DNA of 64,000 bases from a virus (IMGVR_UViG_3300031963_000024:69753-133752); one strand, 5' to 3'. Positions 1,025-63,071 are shown, numbered from the stretch's first letter. The notes: a model not told the origin generated them from the letters alone. Made by a program: numbers and translations.

Positions 1025-1025
1025 A

Positions 1026-9649: not shown

Positions 9650-9650
9650 T

Positions 9651-10217: not shown

Positions 10218-10247
10218 TTTTTAAAAAAAAATAATACTTTATATATA

Positions 10248-12900: not shown

Positions 12901-12902
12901 TT

Positions 12903-14467: not shown

Positions 14468-14492
14468 AATCCGTTGTTAAATATTTATAAGT

Positions 14493-44792: not shown

Positions 44793-44878
44793 GCTTGGGT
44801 GGCGGAATAGGTAGACGCGCTGGACTTAAAATCCAGTGAACAGTAATGTTCGTACGGGTTCGATTCCCGTCTCAAGTA
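44793..44878 (+). tRNA. tRNA-Leu (anticodon UAA), type II with long variable arm
   Basis: Acceptor GCTTGGG/CTCAAGT (two G.U pairs). D-arm GCGG-AATAGGTAGA-CGC. Anticodon arm CTGGA-CTTAAAA-TCCAG. Long variable arm. T-arm ACGGG-TTCGATT-CCCGT. Discriminator A. No encoded CCA. Confidence 0.8.
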
Positions 44879-44887
44879 CTAAAAGAA

Positions 44888-48261: not shown

Positions 48262-50199
48262 TTATTTATTTGTTTGTGTAGTATCAGCATTGATAAATAA
48301 ATTCTTTTCATCTGGTTTTAATTCAACATCAAACATACCTGATAAATCAATTTCATTATCCATATTATTAATTGTTGTGTCTAAACCATTTGTAATTTTT
48401 TCTAAGAAAGTATTATATTCATTTTTAGCGGTGTTTTCTTTTATCTTATTAATAATCTTTCTTTTTTCCTTAATATCATCAAGAATTTCTTTAGCGTTAT
48501 TGAATTTTTTTTCGGTAAATAACTTTTCAAAATTTGTTTTTAATTGATTTTGTTCATTTTCTGTTAGGGTCTGGTCCGCAGACAATGAGTTAAAGATTAA
48601 ATCAAACATTTCCAATCTAGTTTTAGATTGTATTTCTGCATCATCCAATGTATCCCAAAGAGAATATAAGGCTAATCCTGTTACACCAAGTTCAGCACCT
48701 ATTTTTTGACCAATTATGTTAGATTTAACAGGACTTGATTTTACAAGTTCTTTAATTTTATTCTGTGCGTTTATATTTTTTACTGAATTTATTACCTTTT
48801 CTAAATTACCTGTTTTTGATAACGCATCCATTATTTTTAACTCTTCGTCAGTCAATGTTTTGAATACATTTGCAACATCACTTTTTGTAGCGTTTGCAAA
48901 CTTTTTGGCCAAGTTTGTGGCCTCCGAAGGACTAACTTTAATACCAAATGATGCAAATGGTGTAAATGCAAGTATGGTACTTAACAAAGCTCCCGCAGAA
49001 TCACCTGAATCTGATTGTATTTTTGCTGCAACTAAATCTAAACCAAGAGATGCTAAATAAGCAATTAAATTACCTTTACCAAGTACGCTAACAATTATGG
49101 AAACCCCATTTAGTATTAAAGGACCATATTCTTCAATAAATGATGCATTACCATATCTTAATTTATCGTAAGGAATTAATTTATCATTTGATTTGAAATA
49201 ATATTTTTTTGATATTTCGTAATTTCCTTCGTTATTTACATATAAATTTTTTTTCCAAACATATTCATCATATGGTGGTGGTAGTATAAAATCTTTTACA
49301 GTATCTTTAATTTTACTAAATATCAATTGATATAAATCACCATTTTTAGGTGCGTTACCTGATTGATAAAGTCCTTTAGGTGAATTTGTAAAACGTCTTA
49401 ATTCATCATCTGTCAATTTGGTTATAAATGATTTTTTAATTGAGTCTACCGAATTAAAATCTTCGTAAGTAAAATAACTAACTTTACTATTTTTTGGTAG
49501 GTCAACATCACCATATTCATTAAAGGATGCAAATTTTGTTTTACCATATTTATCATTCAATTTTTTAACCTCTTGGCAGTACTCGGGATAGTACGCACAG
49601 CTACCCGAATTTTTTTGATATTGTATAATATAATCATCCAATTCTTTTCCTGATAAACCACTCCCATATGGTGAAACCATTTTTTTGGTACCAACACCAA
49701 ATTGTTTTTTTAGTTCGGCTAATTCTCTTTGATATAAAGATTCAATATTTTTAAGTTGTTCTTTTTGTTTTAAAACCGGTGTTAATTTTTCTTGTTGTTT
49801 TGGGTCATACTCAGGAAATTGTTGTTGGAATCTTCCACCTGGTCCTAAGTAGTCTGATTGAGGTATTTGAGGCTTTTCAAATTTTGGAATTTGAGTTGTT
49901 TGTGTTTTTGGCATCTGAGAAACAATTTTATTAATGTTTCTTCCTGCCAATGCTGTTTGAATTTTATTAAAATCAGCGGTTTGTGGGTATTGATTATTTG
50001 TAATGTTTGGGTATATATCTTTTGCTGGTATGTTTGAGTTGTTAGTTCCAGGATACCCAACCAATTTACCTGATGGTGTGTAATAATATCCACCTTGTTC
50101 CAATATTATTTCTCTGTTTTCAGAAAGCGTTTTTGAAGAATCATACCTCATACAAAGTAAAATTTCATTTAATATGTCTTGTGGATTCTGATTACTCAT
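48262..50199 (-). CDS. Hypothetical large protein
   Basis: 645-aa ORF. Confidence 0.4.
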   Translation of the reverse strand: MSNQNPQDILNEILLCMRYDSSKTLSENREIILEQGGYYYTPSGKLVGYPGTNNSNIPAKDIYPNITNNQYPQTADFNKIQTALAGRNINKIVSQMPKTQTTQIPKFEKPQIPQSDYLGPGGRFQQQFPEYDPKQQEKLTPVLKQKEQLKNIESLYQRELAELKKQFGVGTKKMVSPYGSGLSGKELDDYIIQYQKNSGSCAYYPEYCQEVKKLNDKYGKTKFASFNEYGDVDLPKNSKVSYFTYEDFNSVDSIKKSFITKLTDDELRRFTNSPKGLYQSGNAPKNGDLYQLIFSKIKDTVKDFILPPPYDEYVWKKNLYVNNEGNYEISKKYYFKSNDKLIPYDKLRYGNASFIEEYGPLILNGVSIIVSVLGKGNLIAYLASLGLDLVAAKIQSDSGDSAGALLSTILAFTPFASFGIKVSPSEATNLAKKFANATKSDVANVFKTLTDEELKIMDALSKTGNLEKVINSVKNINAQNKIKELVKSSPVKSNIIGQKIGAELGVTGLALYSLWDTLDDAEIQSKTRLEMFDLIFNSLSADQTLTENEQNQLKTNFEKLFTEKKFNNAKEILDDIKEKRKIINKIKENTAKNEYNTFLEKITNGLDTTINNMDNEIDLSGMFDVELKPDEKNLFINADTTQTNK

Positions 50200-50543
50200 T
50201 ATAGTAATGTATTACCTTTACCTCTTTTAGTTCCTGATTCCCATTTGGTAACACCAATTTGATTAGATTTACTTCTTGTTAATCCTGATTCCCATTTAGT
50301 GGTTCCAACAGGATTTGCTTTACCTCTTGACACACCTGATTCCCATTTGGTTACTGATGGGTATCCTTTTCCACCTTCCGCTCCTCCCGATGAACTTGAA
50401 GATGAAGAACTTGACGAAGGTGTTGATGGTTCTGATGGTGTAGAAGCCGCAGCTGGTTCAGCGGCAGGTTCTTCATCCTCTACCATCATCAGTTGTTTAA
50501 TTCTTTTCAATTCCTCGTTAAGCATTACCAATAAATACAACAA
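50199..50543 (-). CDS. Hypothetical protein with poly-Ser linker and three tandem 17-aa TKWESG repeats
   Basis: Three tandem repeats: VTKWESGVSRGKANPVG / TTKWESGLTRSKSNQIG / VTKWESGTKRGKGNTLL. Preceded by an S10 run. Confidence 0.4.
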   Translation of the reverse strand: MLYLLVMLNEELKRIKQLMMVEDEEPAAEPAAASTPSEPSTPSSSSSSSSSSGGAEGGKGYPSVTKWESGVSRGKANPVGTTKWESGLTRSKSNQIGVTKWESGTKRGKGNTLL

Positions 50544-51963: not shown

Positions 51964-52359
51964 ATGAAAAATATATTTCTATCCCTATTATTGTTGTTAT
52001 CAACAAGTCTATTTGGTCAATACACGACCACACAAATCCGAACAAATACGGTATCAACATCAAAAATGATATTCAACTATCAAACTGATAAATGGGATTT
52101 TGTATCAAACAATGATTACACATCATTTGTTAGTGATTGGACTTTCAACATAACTGATGAAAACACAGGAATGATTTCAAATGGTGGTGTCAATTATGAT
52201 ATCTTATCATATTCAAAAGTTGATGATGCCGCTTACGTCAAAGTATTCAACACTAGAGCTCAAAGAGTCATGGAAATAGTTATAAGAAAAACTGAAAATG
52301 GTCTTGGTATTGTTGTATTTGATAAGGAACAAAGAATATCATATTATTTTTTCCCATGA
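51964..52359 (+). CDS. Hypothetical secreted protein
   Basis: N-terminal signal peptide MKNIFLSLLLLLSTSLFGQ. Confidence 0.4.
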   Translation: MKNIFLSLLLLLSTSLFGQYTTTQIRTNTVSTSKMIFNYQTDKWDFVSNNDYTSFVSDWTFNITDENTGMISNGGVNYDILSYSKVDDAAYVKVFNTRAQRVMEIVIRKTENGLGIVVFDKEQRISYYFFP

Positions 52360-52652
52360 GTTTTACAATAGATTTAGATGAATATGCCGAAGGTGCCATT
52401 TTGTTAGATGGACTTGAGGAGGCAATTATTGGAATTGTTGAGGAATTTGGAAATGGTAGACGAATCTTATATTCTAAACCAAAAATACTATCAATATTAT
52501 GTGAAAGAGATTTGATGACAATGGGTGAGGCCGAAGAATTTTACGATTATAACATTTTAGGTTTACATGCTGGTGAACAAAATGCGGTATTCCTTGATGT
52601 TGATGTGTCCGTAAAAAAAACAGGAGAAGGTTACAAGTATTTGGTTAGTTAA
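52356..52652 (+). CDS. Hypothetical protein
   Basis: ATGA-coupled ORF. Confidence 0.35.
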   Translation: MSFTIDLDEYAEGAILLDGLEEAIIGIVEEFGNGRRILYSKPKILSILCERDLMTMGEAEEFYDYNILGLHAGEQNAVFLDVDVSVKKTGEGYKYLVS

Positions 52653-52663
52653 AATTTTAATAC

Positions 52664-52671
52664 TATCTTTG
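52664..52671 (+). promoter_or_regulatory. Sigma-A-type -7 element (TATCTTTG), leaderless configuration
   Basis: ACTATCTTTGTGGTATG. The ATG at 52676 is about 5 nt after the motif. Confidence 0.5.
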
Positions 52672-52675
52672 TGGT

Positions 52676-53326
52676 ATGAAATTGATTTTAGAAAAAGGTC
52701 AGCAGTTATTTTTCACGAGTGATACACATTATTCTCACTCTAATATCTGCCGTGCAACAACTCGTTGGGCTGGTTCTGAAAACTTAACCCGTGATTTCAA
52801 GTCTCTTGACCACATGAATGACACATTGGTAAATAACATCAACGAAATGGTTGGTGAAAATGATGTTTTGATTCACTTAGGTGACTGGTCTTTTGGCGGG
52901 TTTGAACAAATTGAAGAGTTTCGTAACAGAATTTTATGTAAAAATGTTCACTTGGTTTATGGAAACCACGACCATCACATTCGTAGAAACAAAGAGAATG
53001 TTCAAAGTTTGTTCACATCAACTCAAGATTATATCCACTTGGATTTAAGAATCCCAAACGGAAAAGAAATGGACAAACTTTCAATTGTATGTATGCACTA
53101 CCCAATTGCAAGTTGGAACGGAATGAACGATGGTGTAATTCACTTACACGGTCACGTTCACTTACCTCCACACCTTAGAATTAACGATGGTAAGGCAATG
53201 GACGTGGGTGTTGATGGTAACAACTTGTATCCAATTAACATCAAAGAAATTCGTTCAATTATGAAAGACCGACCACACAAAAAATTGACATTACCTAAAG
53301 ACCATCACGAAAAAAGAATTGACTAA
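52676..53326 (+). CDS. Calcineurin-like metallophosphoesterase (candidate RNA 2',3'-cyclic/3'-phosphatase)
   Basis: MPE motifs: TSDTHYSH, LGDWSFGG, GNHDHH, MHYP, GHVH. Confidence 0.65.
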   Translation: MKLILEKGQQLFFTSDTHYSHSNICRATTRWAGSENLTRDFKSLDHMNDTLVNNINEMVGENDVLIHLGDWSFGGFEQIEEFRNRILCKNVHLVYGNHDHHIRRNKENVQSLFTSTQDYIHLDLRIPNGKEMDKLSIVCMHYPIASWNGMNDGVIHLHGHVHLPPHLRINDGKAMDVGVDGNNLYPINIKEIRSIMKDRPHKKLTLPKDHHEKRID

Positions 53327-53759
53327 TATGACAACTTATACATCAGCAGGAAAAAACCTTTATCTATTACGTGGAATACCAGGGGCTGGTAAATCCACCT
53401 TGGCAAAACAACTTGGTTGTACTCATTTTGAGACCGATAAATATTTTACGGATATTCATGGAAACTACAATTTTGATGGATTAAAATTAAAACAAGCACA
53501 TGAGTGGTGTCAATCTCAAGTTGAGATGGCAATGATTCAAAATCATATTACAAGTGGTTTGGATTCATCTGACATTGTTGTTTCCAACACATTTACACAA
53601 GAGTGGGAAATGAAACATTACTATGATTTGGCAAGTCAATATGGGTATAAGGTATTCAGTATAATTGTGGAAAACAGGCATGGTGGTGTTAATGAACACG
53701 GAGTACCTGAGGACAAATTACAGGCAATGAAAGACCGATTTGAAGTTAAATTAGTTTAA
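53319..53759 (+). CDS. P-loop kinase, T4 polynucleotide-kinase-like
   Basis: Walker A motif GIPGAGKSTLAKQL is similar to the T4 Pnk GCPGSGKST. 146 aa. The start overlaps the MPE gene by 8 nt. Confidence 0.55.
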   Translation: MTNMTTYTSAGKNLYLLRGIPGAGKSTLAKQLGCTHFETDKYFTDIHGNYNFDGLKLKQAHEWCQSQVEMAMIQNHITSGLDSSDIVVSNTFTQEWEMKHYYDLASQYGYKVFSIIVENRHGGVNEHGVPEDKLQAMKDRFEVKLV

Positions 53760-53775
53760 TAAAAATAACTATTTA

Positions 53776-53807
53776 AAATCCCCATCAAAAGTGGGGATTT
53801 TTTTTAC
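53776..53807 (+). terminator. Rho-independent terminator
   Basis: AAAATCCCCAT-CAAAAG-TGGGGATTTTTTTT. Confidence 0.7.
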
Positions 53808-53853
53808 ACTCAGAATACCTTTTTGTACATAATATTGTCTATACTTATAAGAT

Positions 53854-56800
53854 ATGAAAAAATTATTACTTTTAATGATGTTCTTGTTCAGTTTTTTAAC
53901 TGTTCAGGCAACCCACATGATGGGTGCAGATGTTTCCTACAAATGTTTAGGAAATGGAAAGTACAAAATAATTGCTAAAGTTTACCGAGATTGTAGAGGT
54001 GTGTCTATGGGTACACCGTCATTTGGCACTTATGCAGGATTAAATGGTGGAAATGGATGTGGTAGTTACACATTAAGTGGACTATCAAGGGTTTCAATTA
54101 AAGACGTAACAACAAGATGTTCAACAAGTAGTAATCCATGTGGTACCGCAAATTCCGCCTTTGCGAATAAAGGTGTTGAAGAACACACATTTGAAGCCAC
54201 GATTGATTTTAATACGTCACCATTAAACAATTTTGTAAATAAATCAACATGTTGTGAGGTTACATTTTATGTGAATGAGTGCTGTAGAAATGGTGGTATT
54301 ACAACAGGACAGTCAAATCAAAACTTTTACGCCACGGCAATGGTTAACATTTGTAACCTTCAAAAAATGAAGAACAAGTGTAACAGTTCACCACAATTAT
54401 CTAACCCACCTATTGCCTTTTTATGTTGTAATCAACCTTGGTATTACAATAATGGTGCGACTGACACAATAGATTATGATTCAATTTCATATAAGTTAGT
54501 AAATGGGCTTCAGGGTATTCCTAACAGTTCAGTTTCATATTCATCACCATTTACTGCTAGAGTGCCTATGACACCGTATTGTGTACCACCAACGACAATT
54601 AACTGTACACCAAACCCAAAAACAAACCCACCAAGAGGTTTTTATTTTGATACAACAAATGGTGATATTATTACAACACCAACCAAATGTGATGAATCTG
54701 CGGTTATATGTGTTGAACAAACTGAATGGAGAAAAGACACGTCTGGTGTATGGCGTGTAATTGGTAGAACAAGACGTGACATGCAGGTATGGGTTAGGGA
54801 TGATTGTGGATATAACAAAGCACCGACTTTGGGTCCCAAGTTTACTTACAAAGTATGTGAGGGTGAAACTTTGAAGTTTAAGGTTGAATCTGATGATGAA
54901 ACTTTTACACCATATCAGACAACTCCTGATACAACAACAATGAAATGGAACAACGGTATTCCTGGCGCGAAGTTTACATTGGCGAATAAGAGTGATTGGC
55001 CAGAAAAAAGAAAGTCTTACGCAAACTTTGAATGGACACCGCCAATTGGTTCGGCTTCTGATATATCATATTCATTTACAGTTACCGTTAGTGACGAACA
55101 CTGTGAACCACCAGCAACATCAATTCGTTCATTTAAGATTAAGGTAAATCCAAAACCTACATCAAAACGTAGATATACCCAATTAAAATGTGGAAGGTTC
55201 GCCATGGAAGCGTATGAGTTATATGCCGCAACAAGTTATTCATGGAGTGTTAGAGATACTTTGGCGAACGAGTTATTTTACTCTTCAAAGAAAACCGATA
55301 CCATGAATTACTATTATGAAGGTAAGTATATTATCATTCATAAATTAACAAGTGCCCAATCATGTGTTACGATTTATAGTGATACCGTTTATTTAACCCA
55401 ACCACCAAAAGTTGTATTGGCAGATGCTGATAGTTTTGCTTGTAAAGAAACTACATTTACATTGAAGGCTAAAGTAATTGCTGGTAAACCTACTTTGAAA
55501 TACAAATGGAATAATGGTGATACCACCGATTTCACAACGATTAAAAACTTCAAATCTGATTCAACGTTGATGTTGGAAGTAACTGATGGTGATGGTTGTA
55601 AGTTCCGTGATACCACATTAACATTTGTTAAACCACTACCTGTTATTACTTTCGGTTCAGATAAGGTTATCTGTACGTATGAAACTAATACATTTGATGG
55701 TCAAAACAATGACACGGTAAAATACTTGTGGAGTACGGGTGATACAACTCGTTACATGACAACAAACCTAAAAGGTAGTTATTGGGTTAGAATTACTGAT
55801 ACGACATATCAGTGTGTGAAGTATGACACGGCAATACTTGTTGTGAATGATACTGTCATATCTAATGCTGGACCTAACCAATCAATATGTGATAAAGATA
55901 CATTCACCTTGACTGCCAATCATAAACCAACATCATTGACTCCTACATATACTTGGGGTGGATTAGGGAATTTATCAACCTATAAGTTAAAATCTGATAT
56001 TACAAAGTTAACTTATATGTTTACATTGAAGACGGTGTTGACTCAAAACGGGCACACTTGTGAAGATATGGATACAATTTTTGTAAGGGTTAAACCATTA
56101 CCAAAAATTGGTTGGGACCCAAAACCATTGAAACCTCAATGTTATTCTTATGGTAGTGTATGGATGGAACCATTCTTGGTTAAACCTCATAACTTTGGAA
56201 CATATGAAATATGGAGCGGAAACAAAAATAAAATAGGAAACATTGTTACGAATCCATCTAACGGAAGGTTCCTATTCAACACAATATCAGTAGATAATAG
56301 TAAATTACAAGGAGGTAATAACTTTACTACAAAAGTTTATGTTAAGTTTAACGATACAAATGGTTGTTCAAACATGGATTCAACAACACAAACAATATAT
56401 GGTACACCCATTATCCAATTAAGAAAGGCGACAGTATGTCAAGATATTGGGTCAATGATGATGGACAATTTGAGAGTAAGACCAGCAACCAAAAATGGTG
56501 TGAACATGTTATGGGAAGTTGTTAGAGCACCTAATGGTGTGGACACATCTAAACTACTTTATAATATTTCTACGAACTCAATTCCAAACATTAGATTTAA
56601 CTTTGGTGCACCTTCACAGGATTATTACAAAGGTTTGTACACTTTCAAACTTACCGTTAAAGATTTAATTACGGGTTGTCAAAGTACCGACACTGTTGAT
56701 GTAAATATCATTACAGAACCTAAAGTTGAATTGACAACCATACCTCTTTATTGTGAAAATTCAGGTGTGAGTATTAATTTATTTGATTACATTTTGGTGG

Positions 56801-58389
56801 ATGGTGTTAAACCTACTCAAGGTACCATCTTTATTCAGGATAGGAATGGTGATAGAAATGACCCTAAAGTATCTACAGATATATCAACAGGTATATTCAA
56901 AACTAGTATAGGTGTAGGTAATTATAACATTAAGTTTGTAAGTAACCTTATAGCTCCTGACCATTCAGTTACTTGTTCAAGAGTGGATAGTTTTGATGTG
57001 ATTATTAGTTATAAACCTGACCTGAAAGTAATAGGTATGGGTTTTTGTTCAACATATCCTTGGCCATATGAATTGAAAAATGTAATAACCGATGGTAGTT
57101 GGGGTGTGACAAAAATCACTTACCCTGATGGGGGACTTTTTACACCAACACCGAAGGCTAAAGGATATATCGGAGGTTTTAATAATCCTTACAAACTTAT
57201 GATGGTTGGTGAAAGTCAATATGGTTGTAAAGATACTGAGATATTAAAACTAACAGTAATGAACCAACCTGAAATTAAGTTTGTTCCACCATTTGTGAGT
57301 TGTGGTAAAGATACTTGGACTCTAAAATTAGACACTGCAAACATTGACTCCGCAGTTAAATTCAGATGGGTAGTTAATACTAATCTTTATGATACTCTAA
57401 CACCTCCTGGTGGTCAAATGATTGGTAACAAAAGAGGTTTTGGTAAAAAACAATACGTACCATCTGATAATGATACTGCAAGAGGATACTTTACGGTTAA
57501 ATTCAAATCTTGGGACGCACCACTTTGTGCTAGAGTAATTGACAGTGTCAAGATTTTAATCACACCTTATCCTGAACCTGACTTCACCACAACAAATGGA
57601 TGTCAACCACATTTTTCAACATTCACACCGACTGAAAAACGCGGAATTAAATCAATTGAGTATTCGTGGGTTGTAAATGATACATTCTTACTAAGAGATA
57701 ATTTTAGTTGGTCAAAAACTTTTAATAACTTTGGTTATTATAGAACATCATTAACAGCGGTTAATAACACGTTCTTTCCTGAAAAGATATGTGGAACATC
57801 TATAACAAAAACATTTGAAGTTTATCCAAAACCAAGTGTTGTGTTTACTACTGACCCATTGTACAAAACAACGGTGGCATTACCTAAGTTTAAAACTATT
57901 AATACATCAAGTGTTAGTCAGAATCCATTTGTGACTAATATGAAGTACAATTGGACTTGGGGTAAATTATTTAAGATTGGTAGTGATACATTTAAGAATT
58001 CAAACATTGTATTTGGTAAAGATACGGGAACTTATTGGATTAAGTTAGTTGTTACAACAGATAAAGGATGTAAAGACTCAACAATTAGTAGAGTACTAAT
58101 TGGGCCTGACATAATTGTGTTTGTTCCTGACGCTTTCACACCTGACAATGCAGGTCCAAATGAAAACAATACATTCAAACCATTCGTTATTAATAATAAA
58201 ACATACGAAATGTTAATCTTTAACCGTTGGGGAGAAAAAATGTTTGAAACAACTGACCTTTCAAAAGGATGGGATGGAAACTATTTGGGTAAACCAGCAC
58301 CCGATGGTGTATATGTGTATAAGATGATTGTAACTTCATTGGAAGATAAGGTTTTCCAATATAATGGAACTTTTACATTATTAAGATAA
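53854..58389 (+). CDS. SprB-repeat adhesin-like protein with signal peptide and T9SS type-B (gliding motility-associated) C-terminal sorting domain
   Basis: Signal peptide MKKLLLLMMFLFSFLTVQA. Cys-rich N-terminal domain. Several degenerate SprB-like repeats (KYKWNNGDTTDFTTIKNFKSDSTLMLEVTDGDGCKF; KYLWSTGDTTRYMTTNLKGSYWVRITDTTYQCVKY; KYNWTWGK...TYWIKLVVTTDKGCKD). C-terminal 90 aa VPDAFTPDNAGPNENNTFKPF...IFNRWGEKMFETTDLSKGWDGNYLGKPAPDGVYVYKMIV matches the TIGR04131/CHU_C T9SS CTD-B consensus. Confidence 0.8.
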   Translation: MKKLLLLMMFLFSFLTVQATHMMGADVSYKCLGNGKYKIIAKVYRDCRGVSMGTPSFGTYAGLNGGNGCGSYTLSGLSRVSIKDVTTRCSTSSNPCGTANSAFANKGVEEHTFEATIDFNTSPLNNFVNKSTCCEVTFYVNECCRNGGITTGQSNQNFYATAMVNICNLQKMKNKCNSSPQLSNPPIAFLCCNQPWYYNNGATDTIDYDSISYKLVNGLQGIPNSSVSYSSPFTARVPMTPYCVPPTTINCTPNPKTNPPRGFYFDTTNGDIITTPTKCDESAVICVEQTEWRKDTSGVWRVIGRTRRDMQVWVRDDCGYNKAPTLGPKFTYKVCEGETLKFKVESDDETFTPYQTTPDTTTMKWNNGIPGAKFTLANKSDWPEKRKSYANFEWTPPIGSASDISYSFTVTVSDEHCEPPATSIRSFKIKVNPKPTSKRRYTQLKCGRFAMEAYELYAATSYSWSVRDTLANELFYSSKKTDTMNYYYEGKYIIIHKLTSAQSCVTIYSDTVYLTQPPKVVLADADSFACKETTFTLKAKVIAGKPTLKYKWNNGDTTDFTTIKNFKSDSTLMLEVTDGDGCKFRDTTLTFVKPLPVITFGSDKVICTYETNTFDGQNNDTVKYLWSTGDTTRYMTTNLKGSYWVRITDTTYQCVKYDTAILVVNDTVISNAGPNQSICDKDTFTLTANHKPTSLTPTYTWGGLGNLSTYKLKSDITKLTYMFTLKTVLTQNGHTCEDMDTIFVRVKPLPKIGWDPKPLKPQCYSYGSVWMEPFLVKPHNFGTYEIWSGNKNKIGNIVTNPSNGRFLFNTISVDNSKLQGGNNFTTKVYVKFNDTNGCSNMDSTTQTIYGTPIIQLRKATVCQDIGSMMMDNLRVRPATKNGVNMLWEVVRAPNGVDTSKLLYNISTNSIPNIRFNFGAPSQDYYKGLYTFKLTVKDLITGCQSTDTVDVNIITEPKVELTTIPLYCENSGVSINLFDYILVDGVKPTQGTIFIQDRNGDRNDPKVSTDISTGIFKTSIGVGNYNIKFVSNLIAPDHSVTCSRVDSFDVIISYKPDLKVIGMGFCSTYPWPYELKNVITDGSWGVTKITYPDGGLFTPTPKAKGYIGGFNNPYKLMMVGESQYGCKDTEILKLTVMNQPEIKFVPPFVSCGKDTWTLKLDTANIDSAVKFRWVVNTNLYDTLTPPGGQMIGNKRGFGKKQYVPSDNDTARGYFTVKFKSWDAPLCARVIDSVKILITPYPEPDFTTTNGCQPHFSTFTPTEKRGIKSIEYSWVVNDTFLLRDNFSWSKTFNNFGYYRTSLTAVNNTFFPEKICGTSITKTFEVYPKPSVVFTTDPLYKTTVALPKFKTINTSSVSQNPFVTNMKYNWTWGKLFKIGSDTFKNSNIVFGKDTGTYWIKLVVTTDKGCKDSTISRVLIGPDIIVFVPDAFTPDNAGPNENNTFKPFVINNKTYEMLIFNRWGEKMFETTDLSKGWDGNYLGKPAPDGVYVYKMIVTSLEDKVFQYNGTFTLLR

Positions 58390-58390
58390 T

Positions 58391-58597
58391 ATGAAGCTAC
58401 ATAAAATAATTTTGGCATGTATTTTATTAGTAGGGTGTGAAAAAGAACCAATACAAATAAACCCACCTAAAATTTTAAATAATTACCAAAATGAAGTTAA
58501 AACAATTTCTAAACCTAATTCAAAAAAGCGTAAATTGGGTAAAAGAACATTCCGTATTCCAAAAATTCTAAAAACAAAAACTAAAAACTATTTATAA
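58391..58597 (+). CDS. Small basic lipoprotein
   Basis: Lipobox ILLVGC followed by EKEPI. 68 aa, K/R-rich. Confidence 0.45.
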   Translation: MKLHKIILACILLVGCEKEPIQINPPKILNNYQNEVKTISKPNSKKRKLGKRTFRIPKILKTKTKNYL

Positions 58598-58607
58598 ATA
58601 AAAAAAC

Positions 58608-59333
58608 ATGAAAAAAATAATATTATCGCTCGTTTTAGTTGGTATGATTGGTTTTATGGGTTGTGAAAAAGAACCTATACCAACACCAAACCCAACAGTT
58701 AATCTTTTGGTAGATGAAGAACCAAACGCTGTAGTAGATTCTATGGGTACCGTTATCTTTGATAACCCAATGACATCTGACATAACACCAACAACTGATG
58801 CAACAATAATGGATTATCCATTATTTTTGGATTACGACCCATTTACAATGGTTACATCAAGAACTGGTAAAATTGATTCTTGTGTAAAAGGTATTGAAGT
58901 TACAAAGGCCGAAAAAGAACTTTTAACTAAGGCTCATTTAAATAAAGTTGAATGTCAAAAACAAAACAAAATAATTGTTGCAAGAATTAATAGAGAAATT
59001 GAAGGTTGGGCTAAAACACAAAAATATAATTATTATGTAAATTGGTATATGGTTGAAAAATCAAAATTAGATTATGATTTAAAAATGGGTGTAATAACTG
59101 AATCCCAATATAAAGAAAAACTTACCACTTTAGAAAAAACATGGAAAAGTAAAATGTCCTATTTAAATAATCAGGTAAAAGAAAAAATCAAAACAAGTTT
59201 GGATAGAGCAACTGCGTGTGGTAAAATAAAAGATTGTGAAAAGGAGTATCTACATAAGGTGTTAGATATACTTGGTAAATCAAGATATAAGAAATGGATG
59301 GAGTGTCACAAACATAACTACAAAAAGAAATAA
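58608..59333 (+). CDS. Lipoprotein, paralogous N-terminus to preceding gene
   Basis: Lipobox GFMGC followed by the same EKEPIP motif. 241 aa. TATAAATA lies about 8 nt upstream. Confidence 0.5.
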   Translation: MKKIILSLVLVGMIGFMGCEKEPIPTPNPTVNLLVDEEPNAVVDSMGTVIFDNPMTSDITPTTDATIMDYPLFLDYDPFTMVTSRTGKIDSCVKGIEVTKAEKELLTKAHLNKVECQKQNKIIVARINREIEGWAKTQKYNYYVNWYMVEKSKLDYDLKMGVITESQYKEKLTTLEKTWKSKMSYLNNQVKEKIKTSLDRATACGKIKDCEKEYLHKVLDILGKSRYKKWMECHKHNYKKK

Positions 59334-59337
59334 AAAT

Positions 59338-59371
59338 AAGACCCAAGATTTGATTATCTTGGGTTTTTTTA
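59338..59371 (+). terminator. Rho-independent terminator
   Basis: AAGACCCAAGAT-TTGATT-ATCTTGGGTTTTTTT. Confidence 0.75.
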
Positions 59372-59384
59372 TTATTATGCGGTT

Positions 59385-60065
59385 ATGAAAAAAAATATAA
59401 TAGGAATTATCCTTTTAATTATTCTAATAATTTTAAGTTTTATAGGTATTAGTTCAACCCTATATTCAAAACCCAATTTACCAAATGATACAATCATTGT
59501 AATACCAAAAGTTCAAGATACCGTTGTTAATATTAACGGAAAATATGGAACTTTTATTGGTGATTCACACACATCAAATCATAATTCAGGATGGCAAGTT
59601 GTTGTTTGTAAAAAAACAGGTCTAAGAATGAATAATCTATCAGTTTCAGGTAAGACAACAGGTTGGATGCTTGAAACCGCAAAAACATCACTACATAAGG
59701 GTATTGATTATTGTTTTGTTTATGGTGGTGCCAACGATATGTTCACAAAATCAATAACACCTAAACGAGCAGTTTCTAATATTCAACAAATTGTTGACTT
59801 ATGTCATACATATAACATTCGTTGTGTGGTTTTAACAGGTTTTGACCCTGTTAAATGTACAAGGACATCAAATCCCGCTTATGGTCCAAGATACGCTCAG
59901 TTTCAAAAAATGTTAATGGATTCAATATCAGGTGCAACTGTTGTTGATACACGTGTAATTGATAGAACAGGATGTTGGGACGAATTATGTCATATGAACC
60001 CTGAAGGTCACAAAAAAATTGGAATGAAAGTAATTCATGACATGAAATTTCATATTATCAGATAA
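59385..60065 (+). CDS. SGNH/GDSL hydrolase (esterase) with N-terminal membrane anchor
   Basis: N-terminal TM helix IIGIILLIILIILSFIGI. Block I GTFIGDSHT (GDSx). Block III YGGANDM (GxND). Block V DELCHMNPEGH (DxxH). Confidence 0.65.
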   Translation: MKKNIIGIILLIILIILSFIGISSTLYSKPNLPNDTIIVIPKVQDTVVNINGKYGTFIGDSHTSNHNSGWQVVVCKKTGLRMNNLSVSGKTTGWMLETAKTSLHKGIDYCFVYGGANDMFTKSITPKRAVSNIQQIVDLCHTYNIRCVVLTGFDPVKCTRTSNPAYGPRYAQFQKMLMDSISGATVVDTRVIDRTGCWDELCHMNPEGHKKIGMKVIHDMKFHIIR

Positions 60066-60071
60066 TTTTAT

Positions 60072-60079
60072 TATCTTTG
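60072..60079 (+). promoter_or_regulatory. Sigma-A-type -7 element (TATCTTTGTAT), leaderless configuration
   Basis: TTTATTATCTTTGTATTGTG. The CDS appears to start at a GTG at 60084. Confidence 0.5.
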
Positions 60080-60083
60080 TATT

Positions 60084-61115
60084 GTGTTACCTAAATTAAA
60101 CAAATATCACAATGATGGACTGTTATATAAACAGACACATCCTACATTACCGTTAACCATATGGAATTATACACCAGCGGTTCAATACGGTGAAAAGTGG
60201 GATGAAGTAACTTTACAGTGCCGTGGTTTAGTGACTGGTACTGAAGGTAATGTAGTTGCAAGACCATTTAAAAAATTCTTCAACATAGAAGAAAACAAAC
60301 ACACACCTACCCAAGATTTTGAGGTATTTGATAAGATGGATGGTTCATTGGGAATCATATTCAAGTACAATGGTGAAATGATATGTGCCACTCGTGGTTC
60401 TTTTACCTCAGACCAATCAAAGTGGATGAGTGAGTTCGCTCAAAAGTACAATTACCAAGACATCATAGTTGAAGGGTTCACTTATTTGTTTGAAATCATC
60501 TACCCTGAAAATAGAATAGTTGTTAATTATGATGGTCAAGAAAGATTGGTATTGTTAGGTATCATCAATACTGAGACAGGTGAAGAACTTCCACACAATG
60601 AGTTGTTTGAAGGGTTTGACGTTGTCAAAAAATACGATGGAGTTCGGGATTATTCCGAATTAAAGGGTAAAGTTGAGCAAAACTCTGAAGGATTTGTTGT
60701 TCGTTTTTCTAACGGAGACCGAATGAAAATTAAAGGTGAGGAATATCTACGACTTCATAAGATAATGACAAATGTATCAACCACTGGTGTTTGGGAATTG
60801 TTATCTAATGGTGGCGACATCAATGAGTTCTTAAAGGACGTACCTGATGAATTTTATAAGAAAGTAAAAGATTATGCGGATTTATTGAAGTATGGGTTTT
60901 ACCGAGTATCTGAAGATTGTGGAAAGGCACACTATTACTTCAGATATGGAAAATATAGTGATAAAGAAATTGAACCAACTAAAAAACAGTTCGCAGAACA
61001 TGTTATGAATCATGGACATCCACCATACAGAGCGGTGATGTTCGCCATGTGGGATGGAAAACCTTATGATAAATTGATATGGAACATAATAAAACCAGAA
61101 TGGAAGAAACTGTAA
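60084..61115 (+). CDS. RNA ligase, T4 Rnl1 family
   Basis: LQCRGLVTGTEGNVVARPFKKFFNIEENKH...VFDKMDGSLGIIFKYNGEMICATRGSF aligns with T4 RnlA [31 protein letters not shown]...[25 protein letters not shown]. This covers motif I (KxDGS) and the KS.GS block. The start is inferred as a GTG. Confidence 0.75.
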   Translation: MLPKLNKYHNDGLLYKQTHPTLPLTIWNYTPAVQYGEKWDEVTLQCRGLVTGTEGNVVARPFKKFFNIEENKHTPTQDFEVFDKMDGSLGIIFKYNGEMICATRGSFTSDQSKWMSEFAQKYNYQDIIVEGFTYLFEIIYPENRIVVNYDGQERLVLLGIINTETGEELPHNELFEGFDVVKKYDGVRDYSELKGKVEQNSEGFVVRFSNGDRMKIKGEEYLRLHKIMTNVSTTGVWELLSNGGDINEFLKDVPDEFYKKVKDYADLLKYGFYRVSEDCGKAHYYFRYGKYSDKEIEPTKKQFAEHVMNHGHPPYRAVMFAMWDGKPYDKLIWNIIKPEWKKL

Positions 61116-61312
61116 CCCGTGAAGAAATGGTTTCATTGGTCAAATCACGTGGATGGTATTCTATGTGGAATGAAAACAATTGGAATAGTCCTGAGACTGA
61201 TAATTTAGATTGGGGTGGGCGGTCTTTGAAAGCCGCCTACCAACAATGTCTTGATGATATTGAAATGGAAGAACGAGTTAAACAAGGAAAAACAATAAAA
61301 ATTAAAATATAA
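61079..61312 (+). CDS. Hypothetical small protein
   Basis: 77-aa ORF overlapping the ligase 3' end by 37 nt. Confidence 0.3.
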   Translation: MEHNKTRMEETVTREEMVSLVKSRGWYSMWNENNWNSPETDNLDWGGRSLKAAYQQCLDDIEMEERVKQGKTIKIKI

Positions 61313-61316
61313 AGTT

Positions 61317-61586
61317 ATGCCAGATTTTAGTACGGAAATCGACATTGATGTTGATGAATTTTGGGATGAATGCTCAAGAAGTGAAAAAAAAGAGTTAATC
61401 GACCTTTTGGTTGAGGAAGGACATGTTACAAGAGTTCCTAACAGTAGTATCAATGATGAAATTCAAAAACCGTCTTTGATAGAAATTGAGTGGAATGATA
61501 TGATTGATAAATTATCTTTATTAAGACAGAGATTGTCAATTGAAGAGGAAGATACCATAAAGGCTCTGGTTGAAAAATACTCATGA
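61317..61586 (+). CDS. Hypothetical small acidic protein
   Basis: 89-aa ORF. Confidence 0.35.
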   Translation: MPDFSTEIDIDVDEFWDECSRSEKKELIDLLVEEGHVTRVPNSSINDEIQKPSLIEIEWNDMIDKLSLLRQRLSIEEEDTIKALVEKYS

Positions 61587-61960
61587 AAAACAAAAAAATC
61601 TACTACTCATCTAAAAATGAAAAACACGAAATTTTAGAAATTTATTGGATAAAAAATAAATTTATTAATAAAGGATATCATGAGCTAACTGTTAACCTTA
61701 ATGGTGCACATCACTCATATGATATAAATGATTTAAATAGATATACAATCAATTCTATTGCAGGTGCTTATATTAAGAATATAACTCTTGGTTTCAAATG
61801 GGTTCGTGATGATGATTTTATGGATAGATTCATTCAAACACTAACACCAATTGTTGAGGAATTTAAAAAAGACGTTGAATATCATCATTCAATTGATGGT
61901 TGGATTGGAAGAGTTTTTATTGAACCTATTGAAAACCTTGTTGATTGGTTAAAAAAATAA
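61583..61960 (+). CDS. Hypothetical protein
   Basis: ATGA-coupled, 125 aa. Confidence 0.35.
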   Translation: MKNKKIYYSSKNEKHEILEIYWIKNKFINKGYHELTVNLNGAHHSYDINDLNRYTINSIAGAYIKNITLGFKWVRDDDFMDRFIQTLTPIVEEFKKDVEYHHSIDGWIGRVFIEPIENLVDWLKK

Positions 61961-61975
61961 AACTATATTTAAAAC

Positions 61976-62233
61976 ATGTTTAACAAATTTTATAAATTAG
62001 ATTTTGGACTACAAATGATTATCACTTGTCTTGTCCTATTTTTTTCAAACCAACTTGTGTCATACACATTGAGTATGGCTAACGTTCCTAGTACAGTATC
62101 ATTTAACGTGGGTGTTGTACTAACATTTATATTGTTTTTACTCCAAACAATATCAATTTATCTTGGAGCAATGGGAATTATTAACTACATAAAACAAACA
62201 AAAACAAAAAATAAAGATGAGCAATCTAACTAA
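61976..62233 (+). CDS. Small two-TM membrane protein with charged C-terminus (holin-like topology)
   Basis: Two hydrophobic helices followed by a KQTKTKNKDEQSN tail. Topology only; no homology claimed. Confidence 0.3.
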   Translation: MFNKFYKLDFGLQMIITCLVLFFSNQLVSYTLSMANVPSTVSFNVGVVLTFILFLLQTISIYLGAMGIINYIKQTKTKNKDEQSN

Positions 62234-63071
62234 ACTTCTAATCGGAGTATCGGTACTGGTACTTTTGATTTTCGGGTTCACGGGATGTGAACGAATTGAC
62301 GCAGGACACGTAGGTGTTAAAGTAAATCTTTACGGTGATGGTAAAGGTGTTGATGATGTAACTGAGGTTACAGGATGGGTATTGTATAACCCGATTTCAA
62401 CCAAAATTGTTGAATTCCCAACTTATGTTCAACATAAAGAATATAAAAAAACTGAAGACGGTGTTGATGAATCTTTTGTGGTAAACTCTAAAGACGGTTC
62501 CGAGTTCCATTGTTCACCAATGGTAAACTACGCAGTAAAACGTGAAAAGGTTCCTTATATATTTGCAAAATATCGTGTTGAGTTGGACCGAATTGAAGAA
62601 GGTTTCTTAAAGACATCTATCTTTGATGCGTTCCGTGTGGTAGCAAATAGTTACACAGCAGACGCTCTTATATCTAATAGACAAGAGTTTGAAATCAAAG
62701 TCCGACAGGTATTGGAAAAACAATTATCACCTGAAGGATTTGTATTACAACAATTTACATCAAACTTAGTTTACCCTGAAACATTTAAGAAAGCGATTGA
62801 GGCTAAGAACAACGCTGTACAATCGGCACTTATGGCGGAAAATCAAGTTAAAACCGCTGAAGCACAAGCAAGAATTAAAATTGCAACCGCTGAAGGTAAT
62901 GCACAGGCTTTGTTGACAAACGCAAGGGCTGAGGCGGAATCTAACAAATTGAGACAACAAACTTTAACACCGTTGTTGCTTCAACAAATGTGGATTGAAA
63001 AATGGGAAGGTAATGTTCCAAGTACTGTTCTCGGAAGTAACCAAAACCTAATGTTTGGATTAAATAAGTAA
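62217..63071 (+). CDS. SPFH/band-7 (prohibitin/HflK-like) lipoprotein
   Basis: N-terminal LLIFGFTGC lipobox-like signal. SPFH core. C-terminal Ala/Glu-rich heptads (AIEAKNNAVQSALMAENQVKTAEAQARIKIATAEGNAQALL). Confidence 0.55.
   Translation: MSNLTKLLIGVSVLVLLIFGFTGCERIDAGHVGVKVNLYGDGKGVDDVTEVTGWVLYNPISTKIVEFPTYVQHKEYKKTEDGVDESFVVNSKDGSEFHCSPMVNYAVKREKVPYIFAKYRVELDRIEEGFLKTSIFDAFRVVANSYTADALISNRQEFEIKVRQVLEKQLSPEGFVLQQFTSNLVYPETFKKAIEAKNNAVQSALMAENQVKTAEAQARIKIATAEGNAQALLTNARAEAESNKLRQQTLTPLLLQQMWIEKWEGNVPSTVLGSNQNLMFGLNK

Follow-up and report, generated by a model that had tools for sequence, protein, structure and literature searches.

A predicted type B T9SS surface adhesin encoded by large T4-like phages of freshwater Bacteroidota

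Why would a phage encode a large protein bearing the export tags of its host's type IX secretion system (T9SS), and what might such a protein do? We examined this question for a 64-kb stretch of DNA (64,000 nucleotides, hereafter 'the window') that major head protein, portal, and TerL genes identify as phage. Megablast with the window returned no match – that is, no near-identical relative – and tblastn recovered only three uncultured records with weak C-terminal matches. The best cultured match to its TerL is from Flavobacterium phage immuto, at 28% identity.

The gene of interest lies on the plus strand amid RNA-repair and nucleotide-metabolism genes, whereas the structural block occupies the minus strand at ~22-50 kb. 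All ORFs of at least 70 aa in the window with a signal peptide, lipobox, or membrane anchor, plus the smaller lipoprotein lipo68, fall within 51964-63071. The locus is organized as follows:

52676-53326, +, metallophosphoesterase, upstream flank (phrog_547, PF00149)
53319-53759, +, P-loop polynucleotide-kinase-like protein, upstream flank (phrog_2071, phrog_505, PF13671)
53775-53805, +, intrinsic terminator, AAAAUCCCCA-loop-UGGGGAUUUU then U-run (RNA fold -16.5 kcal/mol, z -2.3)
53806-53853, +, gene-specific leader: GAATAC (53813-53818), ~16 nt, TTGTCTATAC (53835-53844), ATG (conservation in relatives)
53854-58389, +, adhesin ORF, 1511 aa (ORF call)
53854-53910, +, Sec signal peptide, aa 1-19, MKKLLLLMMFLFSFLTVQA, cleavage before T (hydrophobic N-terminus, sequence inspection)
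53911-55173, +, Cys-rich all-beta N-terminal 'head', aa 20-~440
55174-58119, +, tandem array of ~11 PKD/Ig-like modules, each 72-104 aa long (PKD_4 32.8 bits, K319L-like PKD, Cys periodicity)
58120-58389, +, T9SS type B C-terminal sorting domain (CTD), aa 1423-1511, plus stop codon (PF13585, TIGR04131)
58391-58597, +, lipo68, small lipoprotein, lipobox LVGC then EKEPI, basic C-terminus (ORF and lipobox)
58608-59333, +, lipo241, lipoprotein, lipobox FMGC then EKEPI (ORF and lipobox)
59338-59367, +, intrinsic terminator, 12-bp stem plus T-run, closing the adhesin-lipoprotein unit (terminator scan)
59385-60065, +, signal-anchored SGNH/GDSL hydrolase (PF13472 51.3 bits, cutoff 32.9; PF00657 29.1 bits)
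60084-61115, +, Rnl1-type RNA ligase, downstream flank (PF09511 72 bits; phrog_562 E 1.4e-73)

An initial annotation of this DNA had placed the adhesin locus between kinase and RNA ligase genes, and the PF13671, PF09511, and PHROG matches bear these flanks out. In the related loci L010/L012, no adhesin gene intervenes and the ligase lies right beside the kinase.

Domain architecture of the adhesin

The adhesin begins with the Sec signal peptide that had been predicted for it: sequence inspection and a hydrophobicity scan identified the hydrophobic segment, which is conserved across the phage clade and kept in all correctly started phage copies as well as in bacterial homologs. AF2 models it as a helix with low confidence. 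The head that follows is all-beta and adhesin-like, without an enzyme fold, and is the most conserved part between phage and bacterial copies (55-68%). Each module of the stalk is marked by a conserved Cys pair, often within G-C-x3-5-D-[ST], and the Cys, Asp, and Thr columns are invariant; aa 1001-1300 form the most variable stretch of the adhesin within the phage clade. At the C-terminus, PF13585 (CHU_C) scored 39.7 bits (cutoff 27) over aa 1423-1493 and 44.8 bits on the C-terminal segment, and TIGR04131 scored 42.8 bits (cutoff 35) over aa 1424-1511. The gliding-motility/T9SS type B CTD proposed in the initial annotation thus passed both curated cutoffs. No window protein tested matched the type A CTD profile PF18962 (Por_Secre_tail).

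The SprB-type repeats ascribed to the same protein did not hold up. With PF13573, the whole adhesin gave no match at E<=0.1; four of its segments and the bacterial homologs P0084 and P0092 were likewise negative at E<=10. A GG..PY.Y.W-type motif is absent from the adhesin. We therefore rejected an SprB-repeat identity. The repeats that can be detected are PKD-like, and the adhesin body consists of PKD-like beta-sandwich modules of the kind that define PKD/Ig-like repeat surface proteins. It is about a quarter of the size of SprB.

This architecture bears on an earlier suggestion that the adhesin scaffold has been reused for a fibre or decoration protein of the virion. Phage fibres and capsids often carry Ig-like and PKD domains, tail fibres can contain SGNH domains (the neighboring SGNH gene matches phrog_5240), and in L003 the adhesin gene lies near Mtd_N and Laminin_G/lectin proteins. 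The adhesin itself, however, has no PHROG match at all, structural or other, and is encoded outside the minus-strand structural block; the other window ORFs include neither an adhesin paralog nor a T9SS component, and the closest relatives of the adhesin are chromosomal bacterial genes. In addition, its Sec signal peptide and T9SS CTD are conserved clade-wide and would remove it from the cytoplasm, where tailed virions assemble. We consider a virion role hardly credible.

Chromosomal homologs and the phage clade

We identified 712 adhesin homologs. Chromosomal homologs are full-length and collinear with the phage protein, at ~1490-1580 aa (e.g., P0084 and P0092; loci L005, L006, L014, L049, and L071), and they sit among housekeeping genes in freshwater Bacteroidota MAGs. 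Their neighbors include CPSase, FTHFS, and PfkB in L005, upstream pepP-like and pcm-like genes in L071, L049, and L063, and downstream ClpX, ClpP, and trigger factor in L006 and L071. Judged by sequence, the phage adhesin is not an SprB relative and is a member of this different family on freshwater Bacteroidota chromosomes.

The phage copies form a single clade, and phage genomic context was seen for copies across all of it. The phage|bacteria split has a bootstrap of 100/100, so multiple independent acquisitions are unsupported. Adhesin identity is 51-92% between phage copies and 34-63% between phage and bacterial copies. Over the last 100 aa, phage copies are 62-91% identical to one another, 52-62% identical to most chromosomal homologs, and 43-49% identical to the most distant of these. 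The MAG loci L049 and L071 were considered as very close bacterial orthologs and set aside: identity reaches 60-63% in the best segment but is 48-55% at full length. Phage copies have ~32% GC, and the gene occupies several positions in related phage genomes.

Both the signal peptide and the CTD are retained across >60 phage sequence clusters, and the phage clade is under strong purifying selection, with a dN/dS of 0.07-0.15 (the neighboring RNA ligase has 0.09). These low ratios and the intact signals clade-wide rule out a pseudogene or hitchhiker. Recombination among phage adhesin copies is also evident, giving a mosaic pattern.

The adhesin gene travels with its own terminator and with a leader partly common to the bacterial genes. 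Six of the eight full upstream regions (the window, L098, L013, L009, L001, and L010) have the terminator hairpin before the adhesin, irrespective of which gene comes first; the hairpin is missing from L003 and L096, and in L011 coding sequence takes its place. The leader is conserved in the same six and in L008 although the upstream genes differ. Since the leader motif TTGTCTATAC occurs once in the window, it is gene-specific; as a promoter class it was rejected for having this one copy. The phage leader aligns with a GCAAC-N16-TGTCAATA box pair that in the bacterial orthologs comes after a TAnnTTTG -7 promoter element. An Rfam search of the leader gave no family match. The T4-type late promoter TATAAATA was counted 10 times on one strand and 8 times on the other, about what base composition would give by our estimate (~14 per strand), and is thus uninformative as a timing marker. 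A sigma-70 promoter scan of the window, using a model unsuited to Bacteroidota, found no enrichment.

From this evidence we lean, with somewhat better than even confidence, toward the adhesin being a host-derived surface protein kept functional in large T4-like – and apparently lytic – phages of freshwater Bacteroidota and displayed on the infected cell. A different use, superinfection exclusion or receptor competition, was raised in the initial annotation. The phage copy would compete for the shuttle and for surface sites or mask a receptor, which could be the chromosomal homolog or another T9SS-displayed adhesin, so that the infected cell and its debris cease adsorbing phages; the lipoproteins and the putative SGNH esterase would help to bring this change about. 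In Flavobacterium, mutations that affect the T9SS or gliding make cells phage-resistant, with SprB and RemA thought to be receptors (PMC9804748), and superinfection or competition roles have been proposed for phage T9SS cargo (Bellas et al., PMC7468147). The adhesin CTD is similar enough to those of host homologs for shuttle competition, the gene is located among envelope-modifying genes, and mosaic recombination fits an arms-race locus. However, conservation peaks in the head, whether phage copies are compared with one another or with host copies, and dN/dS is low everywhere; a simple blocker or decoy would need neither. No hypervariable tip was seen in the adhesin, and an extra receptor-like protein would be counter-productive unless its phage-binding site differed. 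We regard exclusion as unlikely, if far from negligible, and retain display of a functional surface protein as the favored reading.

Lipoproteins and SGNH hydrolase downstream of the adhesin

The adhesin, lipoprotein, and SGNH genes had been described as one cassette bracketed by terminators. Both terminators are present, but the SGNH gene follows the second, and the terminator-bracketed unit comprises the adhesin and two lipoproteins. Likewise, these genes are non-random neighbors – lipo241 and SGNH recur near the adhesin in divergent phages, and the gene order of L098 is the same as that of the window – but they do not form one fixed unit, as order and content differ among relatives. In L003 a type A CTD protein (PF18962, 29.3 bits) adjoins the adhesin homolog, and in L010 a second type B CTD protein does so. 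The adhesin thus sits in a shuffling island of envelope-targeted genes that includes type A and type B cargo, lipoproteins, and SGNH.

The two lipoprotein ORFs and their lipoboxes, LVGC and FMGC, are present as annotated, each followed by the identical C-EKEPI. Lipo68 has no Pfam, NCBIfam, or PHROG match and is weakly constrained (dN/dS 0.50); L013 (61 aa) and L098 (64 aa) have an intact copy, and L009 and L010 retain a fragment lacking the lipobox. Lipo241 has a disordered linker and a DYPxFLDYDPFT motif and ends in a four-helix bundle with conserved Cys; its AF2 model has a pLDDT of 79.5, and fold searches were uninformative. All 128 lipo241 homologs are at least 50% identical, none carries a bacterial name, and all seven contexts examined are phage. 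Only 40 representatives occur among 1.84 billion proteins.

The idea that the pair represents a duplicated export or anchor partner is unsupported, given that lipo241 is unlike PorP/SprF and that lipo68 is both weakly constrained and degenerate in L009 and L010. A sorting or recombination module common to both genes would account for CEKEP just as well. The Bacteroidota LES has the form K-(D/E)2 or Q-A-(D/E)2 at +2 to +5, and 'KE' is a very weak LES in a reporter assay (PMC5080379). The post-Cys E-K-E-P matches only this 'KE' form, the lipo241 family consensus being C-[EK]-K-[ED]-P, and an LES seems a doubtful explanation of CEKEP.

The position of lipo241 raises the possibility that it occupies the SprF slot as a phage-specific chaperone, anchor, or adaptor, allowing export or retention of the cargo without a cognate host shuttle. 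In L009, lipo241 comes immediately after a type B CTD gene; in the window, L098, and L010/L012, nothing but lipo68 or what is left of it separates the two. The cargo gene upstream of lipo241 in L010/L012 encodes a different type B protein, of 629 aa, and the junction sequence is conserved. Lipo241 is confined to this phage group, is under purifying selection (dN/dS 0.21-0.32), has conserved Cys residues, and is predicted to be co-transcribed with the adhesin between the two terminators. Against such a pairing, Pfam and NCBIfam revealed no similarity of lipo241 to PorP/SprF, PorE, or any known T9SS component, the adhesin occurs without lipo241 in the stretches covered of L001, L008, and L013, and lipo241 occurs without a type B gene beside it in L097 and L099. 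We think an accessory role of this kind quite improbable. We give equally little credence to its extension to a phage T9SS 'secretome', in which a whole lineage of large lytic phages would carry the type B adhesin, additional cargo of both types, and lipo241. Adhesin and lipo241 would then work as a cargo/anchor pair that needs no outside partner, and infected cells would adhere to particles or to hosts not yet infected. If true, it would mean that a virus manipulates host surface behavior for its own transmission and that a non-SprF route anchors type B cargo.

The membrane-anchored SGNH protein of the initial annotation is well founded. PF13472 scores above its cutoff, the N-terminal hydrophobic anchor spans aa 4-~25 (hydrophobicity 3.9), and the catalytic blocks are GDS at aa 59-61, GAND at 115-118, and DELCH-MNPEGH at 199-209 with H203; in block V the Asp lies four, not three, residues before the His (DELCH vs DxxH). 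The catalytic domain would lie outside the cytoplasm. SGNH dN/dS is 0.09, and homologs are found near the adhesin in L013 (95%), L098, L011 (48%, upstream), and L094 (44%).

These downstream genes could instead be an envelope-disruption or lysis-accessory set – spanin-like lipoproteins with an SGNH cell-wall or O-acetyl esterase – that shares the island but is unrelated to the adhesin. The SGNH gene does lie outside the terminator-bracketed unit, its product has signal-anchor architecture, it accompanies lipo241 without the adhesin in L097, and the window yielded no homolog of a GH19 endolysin. Against this reading, lipo241 lacks a C-terminal TM segment and a partner i-spanin, and neither lipo68 nor lipo241 matches a spanin PHROG. 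The GH19 endolysin of L094 and that of L003 are each encoded by a gene of their own on the opposite strand. There is little chance, in our estimation, that a lysis function accounts for the set.

Proposed export and role, and comparison with known systems

Returning to display of a functional surface protein, the phage gene encodes a Sec and T9SS type B cargo, and its export should therefore depend on the host T9SS. This dependence, already proposed in the initial annotation, is predicted from a CTD that passes curated thresholds and from signals kept under purifying selection. Type B cargo is secreted by way of the T9SS core, GldK/L/M/N and SprA, together with a shuttle. A shuttle gene directly downstream of type B cargo is usual, not universal. 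No PorP/SprF-like shuttle (PF11751, TIGR) lies directly downstream of the window adhesin, where the genes are lipo68, lipo241, and SGNH, or beside the adhesin in L001, L008, L013, and L094, and the 64-kb window contains no signal-peptide ORF >284 aa other than the adhesin. The chromosomal homologs are also orphans, without an adjacent shuttle gene. Such orphan type B cargo without an adjacent sprF is documented in bacteria (PMC12618676). In F. johnsoniae, three orphan CTDs that are >44% identical share one shuttle and a pair that is 68% identical cross-talks (PMC12618676); the phage-host CTD identity of 52-62% (closer homologs) falls between these two cases.

We infer the following course of events. 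During infection the adhesin gene would be transcribed from its own leader, which moves with the gene, and the host Sec system would export the product via its signal peptide. The type B CTD would then be recognized by the host T9SS, and a PorP/SprF-type shuttle would extract and anchor the adhesin. We invoke a host shuttle because no SprF-like gene accompanies the adhesin in the window; most plausibly it would be that of the chromosomal homolog, given the CTD identity to the closest families. Since the address tags fit the host T9SS, infected cells probably display the virus-encoded adhesin, with its Cys-rich beta head on a stalk of ~11 Ig-like modules. The island genes – type A and type B cargo, lipoproteins, and SGNH – may jointly remodel the infected-cell surface. 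The adhesin's most likely purpose would be to provide or strengthen the function that the host's adhesin already serves, such that the infected cell stays attached to particles or neighbors and progeny would therefore be released beside new hosts. This adhesion or transmission benefit is our conjecture; conservation of the head is compatible with it and with other uses.

The closest known counterpart is the chromosomal 'gliding motility-associated C-terminal domain-containing protein' family of uncultured freshwater Bacteroidota, whose members match the phage protein part by part, from signal peptide and Cys-rich head through the PKD/Ig-like stalk to the type B CTD. Bacterial copies keep to conserved loci among housekeeping genes and have a canonical TAnnTTTG promoter, whereas phage copies form a separate, low-GC clade with a mobile position and a shortened leader preceded by a terminator. 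Envelope-altering phage morons – lambda Lom and Bor, T5 Llp, prophage O-antigen modification, and superinfection-exclusion lipoproteins – resemble the adhesin, as predicted here, in being phage-encoded, host-exported to the envelope, inclusive of lipoproteins, and without a virion role. They differ in being small and mostly from temperate phages or directed at a single receptor, whereas here a 1511-aa, predicted T9SS-routed adhesin has a clear chromosomal homolog.

SprB and the other F. johnsoniae type B adhesins (PMC12618676, PMC12635249; Kulkarni et al. 2019, cited in PMC12618676; Gorasia et al. 2022, PMC9143113) share with the phage protein, itself a predicted surface adhesin, a Sec signal, a large repetitive beta-rich body, and a TIGR04131 CTD. 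The phage adhesin differs from SprB in lacking PF13573 repeats, in its N-terminal head, and in being phage-encoded. Type B T9SS cargo comprises the mobile and static adhesins of Bacteroidota and needs highly specific shuttle proteins for export, and type B adhesins and the T9SS are the main phage-resistance loci in Flavobacterium. The phage copies raise the questions of how orphan type B CTDs find a shuttle, for which phage and host CTDs offer a natural series of 52-62% identity, and of whether phages reprogram the adhesive surface of infected aquatic particle-associated bacteria.

Phage T9SS cargo as such is already known, since type A phage cargo was reported in 2020: the Cryophage genome encodes T9SS-sorted proteins presumed to use the host T9SS, a case that its authors called 'a unique occurrence' (Bellas et al. 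2020, Nat Commun, PMC7468147). As in our phages, Cryophage T9SS cargo lies in flexible, variable regions, and GDSL lipase genes also appear in those phage maps (PMC7468147). Cryophage cargo is highly variable and consists of enzymes or PA14 proteins with type A CTDs (PMC7468147), whereas the adhesin described here has a type B CTD, which implies a specific shuttle, is 1511 aa long, is under strong purifying selection, and spans a broad phage clade. The adhesin adds the type B pathway and a widespread lineage of freshwater phages to the one previous report, which concerned type A cargo of a single phage.

The adhesin and its surroundings

Our analyses covered 64 kb of phage genome. Strong PHROG matches for the major head protein, portal and large terminase (TerL) mark the window as phage; TerL is distantly T4-like, with Flavobacterium phage immuto as its best cultured match (28%), and relatives of the phage's genes are metagenomic sequences throughout, with samples from lake studies of the Mendota, Baikal, Rimov, Zurich and Tanganyika type. 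The adhesin, lipoprotein and SGNH ORFs below come from a six-frame listing.

Features around the adhesin gene
52676-53326, + strand: metallophosphoesterase gene, upstream of the adhesin
53319-53759, + strand: P-loop kinase gene, upstream of the adhesin
53775-53805, + strand: predicted terminator, 5' of the adhesin gene
53854-58389, + strand: adhesin ORF, 1511 aa
58391-58597, + strand: lipo68 ORF (small predicted lipoprotein), 68 aa
58608-59333, + strand: lipo241 ORF (small predicted lipoprotein), 241 aa
59338-59367, + strand: predicted terminator, 3' of lipo241
59385-60065, + strand: SGNH hydrolase ORF, 226 aa
60084-61115, + strand: Rnl1-type RNA ligase gene, downstream of the adhesin unit and SGNH gene

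The initial annotation described the adhesin as an SprB-repeat protein with a type B T9SS sorting domain. The predicted N-terminal signal peptide has a typical form, and the C-terminal sorting domain (CTD) scores above the curated type B cutoffs for both PF13585 (39.7 bits; cutoff 27) and TIGR04131 (42.8 bits; cutoff 35). The SprB repeats did not hold up: PF13573 gave no match at E≤0.1 across the whole protein or at E≤10 across four segments, and two bacterial homologs likewise lacked an SprB repeat at E≤10. With this search empty and the detectable repeats PKD-like, identity as an SprB homolog was ruled out. What we recognized instead were approximately 11 modules of 72–104 aa, with conserved Cys pairs and G-C-x3-5-D-[ST] motifs as their hallmarks. 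The adhesin is thus an adhesin-like cell-surface protein whose Cys-rich head is borne by an Ig-like stalk with a terminal type B CTD.

Several additional features of the window were observed. A glycosyltransferase cluster (2-13712, + strand) that could have a role in DNA or surface-glycan modification includes four glycosyltransferase genes (2-1024, 2698-4338, 5637-6497 and 12903-13712), a UDP-glucose/GDP-mannose dehydrogenase (8350-9177) and a possible methyltransferase, with a PolB-like exonuclease, dUTPase and PhoH scattered within it. Located within the minus-strand structural region, a + strand gene (37722-39806) encodes a 694-aa ATPase with two AAA+ domains that is probably Clp/Hsp100-like (phrog_4871 'ATP-dependent protease', E 1e-241). 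The sole tRNA is a tRNA-Leu (anticodon UAA; 44793-44879, + strand). A 114-aa ORF (50199-50543, - strand) has a Pro/Ala/Ser-rich low-complexity stretch with a poly-Ser run and then three copies of a 'TKWESG' repeat unit.

Phage and chromosomal copies of the adhesin

A database search identified 712 adhesin homologs, which form an unbroken collinear series of ~1460–1580 aa proteins with identities from 92% down to ~33%, most of them with PKD_4 and CHU_C annotations. Context look-ups placed homologs at least 54% identical to the window adhesin on phage contigs, and homologs with overall identity of 50% or less amid housekeeping genes on chromosomes of uncultured freshwater Bacteroidota. Several of the bacterial homologs share one conserved position, with pepP-like and pcm-like genes upstream (L071, L049, L063) and MFS transporter, ClpX, ClpP and trigger factor genes downstream (L006, L071).

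Phage loci carrying the adhesin
L001/L002, L008, L009, L013, L098: phage contigs syntenic with the window
L003/L004: Gp23-type phage, different from the window phage
L010/L012: phage contigs from IMG/VR, one of 295 kb (IMGVR_UViG_3300027621_000003) and one of 233 kb
L094: phage encoding a Peptidase_S74 protein, GH19 endolysin, GDSL gene and metallophosphoesterase

A neighbor-joining tree of 156 full-length sequences groups every phage-context copy in a single clade, and the phage/bacteria bipartition had a bootstrap value of 100/100 in a 56-sequence subset (trees were built on protein distances). Identity is 51–92% between phage copies and 34–63% between phage and bacterial copies. This topology points to a single acquisition of the gene from a Bacteroidota host, or at minimum to monophyly of the phage copies, with later diversification within phages. 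Some Bacteroidota-type copies sit on metagenome-assembled contigs with odd record titles ('uncultured Rhizobium sp.', 'uncultured Bifidobacterium sp.', 'Sphingomonadales bacterium'); these contigs (L017, L020-L022, L029, L049, L054) are probably mis-binned or mislabelled.

Pairwise dN/dS of the adhesin is 0.07–0.15, similar to that of the adjacent RNA ligase (0.09). Conservation is highest in the N-terminal ~450 aa and the CTD and lowest in the stalk (aa 1001–1300), and the head is the part closest to bacterial homologs (55–68% identity vs 44–50% overall). Each correctly started member of the phage clade keeps its signal peptide and CTD. Because these export signals are conserved, no PHROG structural match was found for the adhesin and its gene lies outside the structural module, it is unlikely that the protein serves in the virion. 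Comparison of the window adhesin with the L003, L001 and L010 copies revealed mosaicism: L003 is 90% identical in the head and 69% over the full length, and L010 is 89% identical in the CTD and 65% over the full length. Such discordance among head, stalk and CTD identities indicates recombination of the adhesin among phage lineages.

The position of the gene also varies. As initially annotated, it lies between the kinase and ligase genes in the window, and the same is true of L013 and L098. In L001, L009 and L010 it is preceded by an Rnl2-like ligase gene plus four small ORFs, and in L003 it is close to Mtd_N and lectin-like genes. The ligase adjoins the kinase in L010/L012, with no adhesin intervening.

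A terminator hairpin belonging to the adhesin gene itself is present in six of eight complete upstream regions, and seven loci (window, L098, L013, L009, L001, L010 and L008) share the leader GAATAC-N16-TTGTCTATAC-ATG, which occurs once in the window (53806-53853). Neither hairpin nor leader was found upstream of the L003 and L096 copies. Bacterial orthologs have a conserved leader of their own ~80 nt upstream (L014:4463-4545, L016, L049, L035, L015, L019, L022, L024, L027, L071 and L079), comprising TAnnTTTG, which is the canonical -7 promoter element of Bacteroidota, then GCAAC and a short hairpin that varies, with TGTCAATA ~35–40 nt before the ATG. Since the two boxes of the phage leader align with the bacterial pair at equal spacing, the phage lineage seems to have acquired a portion of the host leader along with the gene. 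An Rfam search with the phage leader returned no match; the element could be a promoter, an operator or a 5'UTR element.

Envelope-targeted genes beside the adhesin

Every ORF of at least 70 aa with a signal peptide, lipobox or N-terminal anchor in the scanned 64 kb falls within 51964-63071, as does lipo68. Because the predicted exported or anchored ORFs cluster there while gene content varies among relatives, this region is a flexible island of genes predicted to be envelope-targeted. The single cassette proposed at first is not one fixed unit, though the window's exact order is kept in L098. Both terminators thought to bracket that cassette are present as predicted elements; between them lie the genes for the adhesin and both lipoproteins, with the SGNH gene immediately beyond the second. 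The pairing of the lipoproteins was borne out, with both small ORFs having a lipobox followed by an identical EKEPI. Resemblance of their CEKEP to the Bacteroidota lipoprotein export signal is limited to a weak 'KE' form (PMC5080379). The SGNH assignment was likewise supported (PF13472, 51.3 bits; N-terminal hydrophobic anchor; GDS, GAND and His blocks), and homologs of this enzyme are close to the adhesin in L013, L098, L011 (upstream) and L094.

We found that lipo241 is a conserved family of the window's phage group. It has 128 homologs, each at least 50% identical, with phage contexts wherever these were examined, and just 40 representatives among 1.84 billion proteins. The predicted model consists of a disordered linker and a four-helix bundle with conserved cysteines; fold searches were uninformative. 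In L009 a type B CTD gene is directly followed by lipo241, and in the window, L098 and L010/L012 the gap between the two is a short lipo68 ORF or its remnant. The gene upstream of lipo241 in L010/L012 encodes a second type B cargo of 629 aa (L010:16550-18439; CHU_C, 43 bits) that has weak RCC1/WD40-like repeats; in L010 this gene is 2 kb 3' of the adhesin, and the junction sequence is conserved. lipo241 is 1.4 kb 3' of the adhesin in the basal phage L094, is present without an accompanying type B gene in L097 and L099, and was not found in the stretches covered of L001, L008 and L013. lipo68 (dN/dS 0.5) is complete in the window, L013 and L098, and is a degenerate remnant lacking a lipobox in L009 (14537-14650) and L010 (18440-18552). 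In the latter two loci the interval from the stop codon of the type B CTD gene to lipo241 also has a conserved junction, TATTTATAAATAAAAA(A)CATG, which together with the remnant suggests recombination through the common signal-peptide/CEKEP module or the CTD 3' end.

Five phage loci (L001:14481-15629, L008:4598-5422, L013:9069-9896, L003:14693-15541 and L094:7228-8025) have, flanking the adhesin, a member of a signal-peptide family that starts with a conserved 'CDWSKV'; the one in L003 carries a type A T9SS CTD (PF18962, 29.3 bits). No member occurs in the window, in which the order runs straight from kinase to terminator to adhesin. L098, a relative of the window phage, has a GIY-YIG/I-TevI-like homing endonuclease gene (13917-14672) between thymidylate synthase and dTDP-sugar isomerase genes.

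Export, purpose and known systems

Type B cargo is exported via Sec, the T9SS translocon and a PorP/SprF-type shuttle; cargo-shuttle pairing is specific, and the shuttle gene as a rule lies directly downstream. Profile searches, a neighbourhood scan within the 64-kb window and related phage loci revealed no SprF-like gene beside the phage adhesin, and its chromosomal homologs are also orphans. Orphan type B cargo proteins with no adjacent shuttle gene are known to exist and to have one shuttle in common; cross-talk takes place when CTDs are similar enough, three such orphan CTDs being >44% identical to one another and a 68%-identical pair cross-talking (PMC12618676). SprF itself is disulfide-linked to the GldK track (PMC12635249). 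The phage CTD is 52–62% identical to most CTDs of the chromosomal homologs and 43–49% identical to the most distant. The most economical reading is that the phage adhesin would be exported by the host shuttle serving the chromosomal homolog and then displayed on the infected cell surface.

Once displayed, the adhesin might replace or boost host adhesin function, and infected cells might stay attached near new hosts. The functional head, which of all regions resembles the host protein most closely, leads us to favour this benefit over pure receptor masking. A serious rival is superinfection exclusion or competition for a receptor, since the T9SS and the gliding adhesins are known as loci of phage resistance and are presumed to act as receptors (PMC9804748).

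The phage type B adhesin is genuine, occurs widely within one freshwater phage lineage and is strongly constrained, and its mechanistic interest lies in shuttle specificity. Among 50,697 GenBank phage records, three uncultured ones are weakly similar to the adhesin, in the C-terminal part only. Two 634–642 kb 'uncultured phage' records have ORFs ~31–32% identical to the adhesin's C-terminal part, type B CTD included (LR756502.1, aa 1227–1511; LR745206.1, two pieces within aa 555–1511), and T9SS-type cargo may also be present in unrelated huge phages. Our literature search yielded no account of type B cargo in a phage, nor of a comparable host adhesin family with a phage member, and one description of phage-encoded T9SS cargo: Cryophage, whose three variable type A CTD proteins were termed 'a unique occurrence' by the authors (PMC7468147). 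The Cryophage cargo is type A and variable, whereas the window phage adhesin is type B and strongly constrained.
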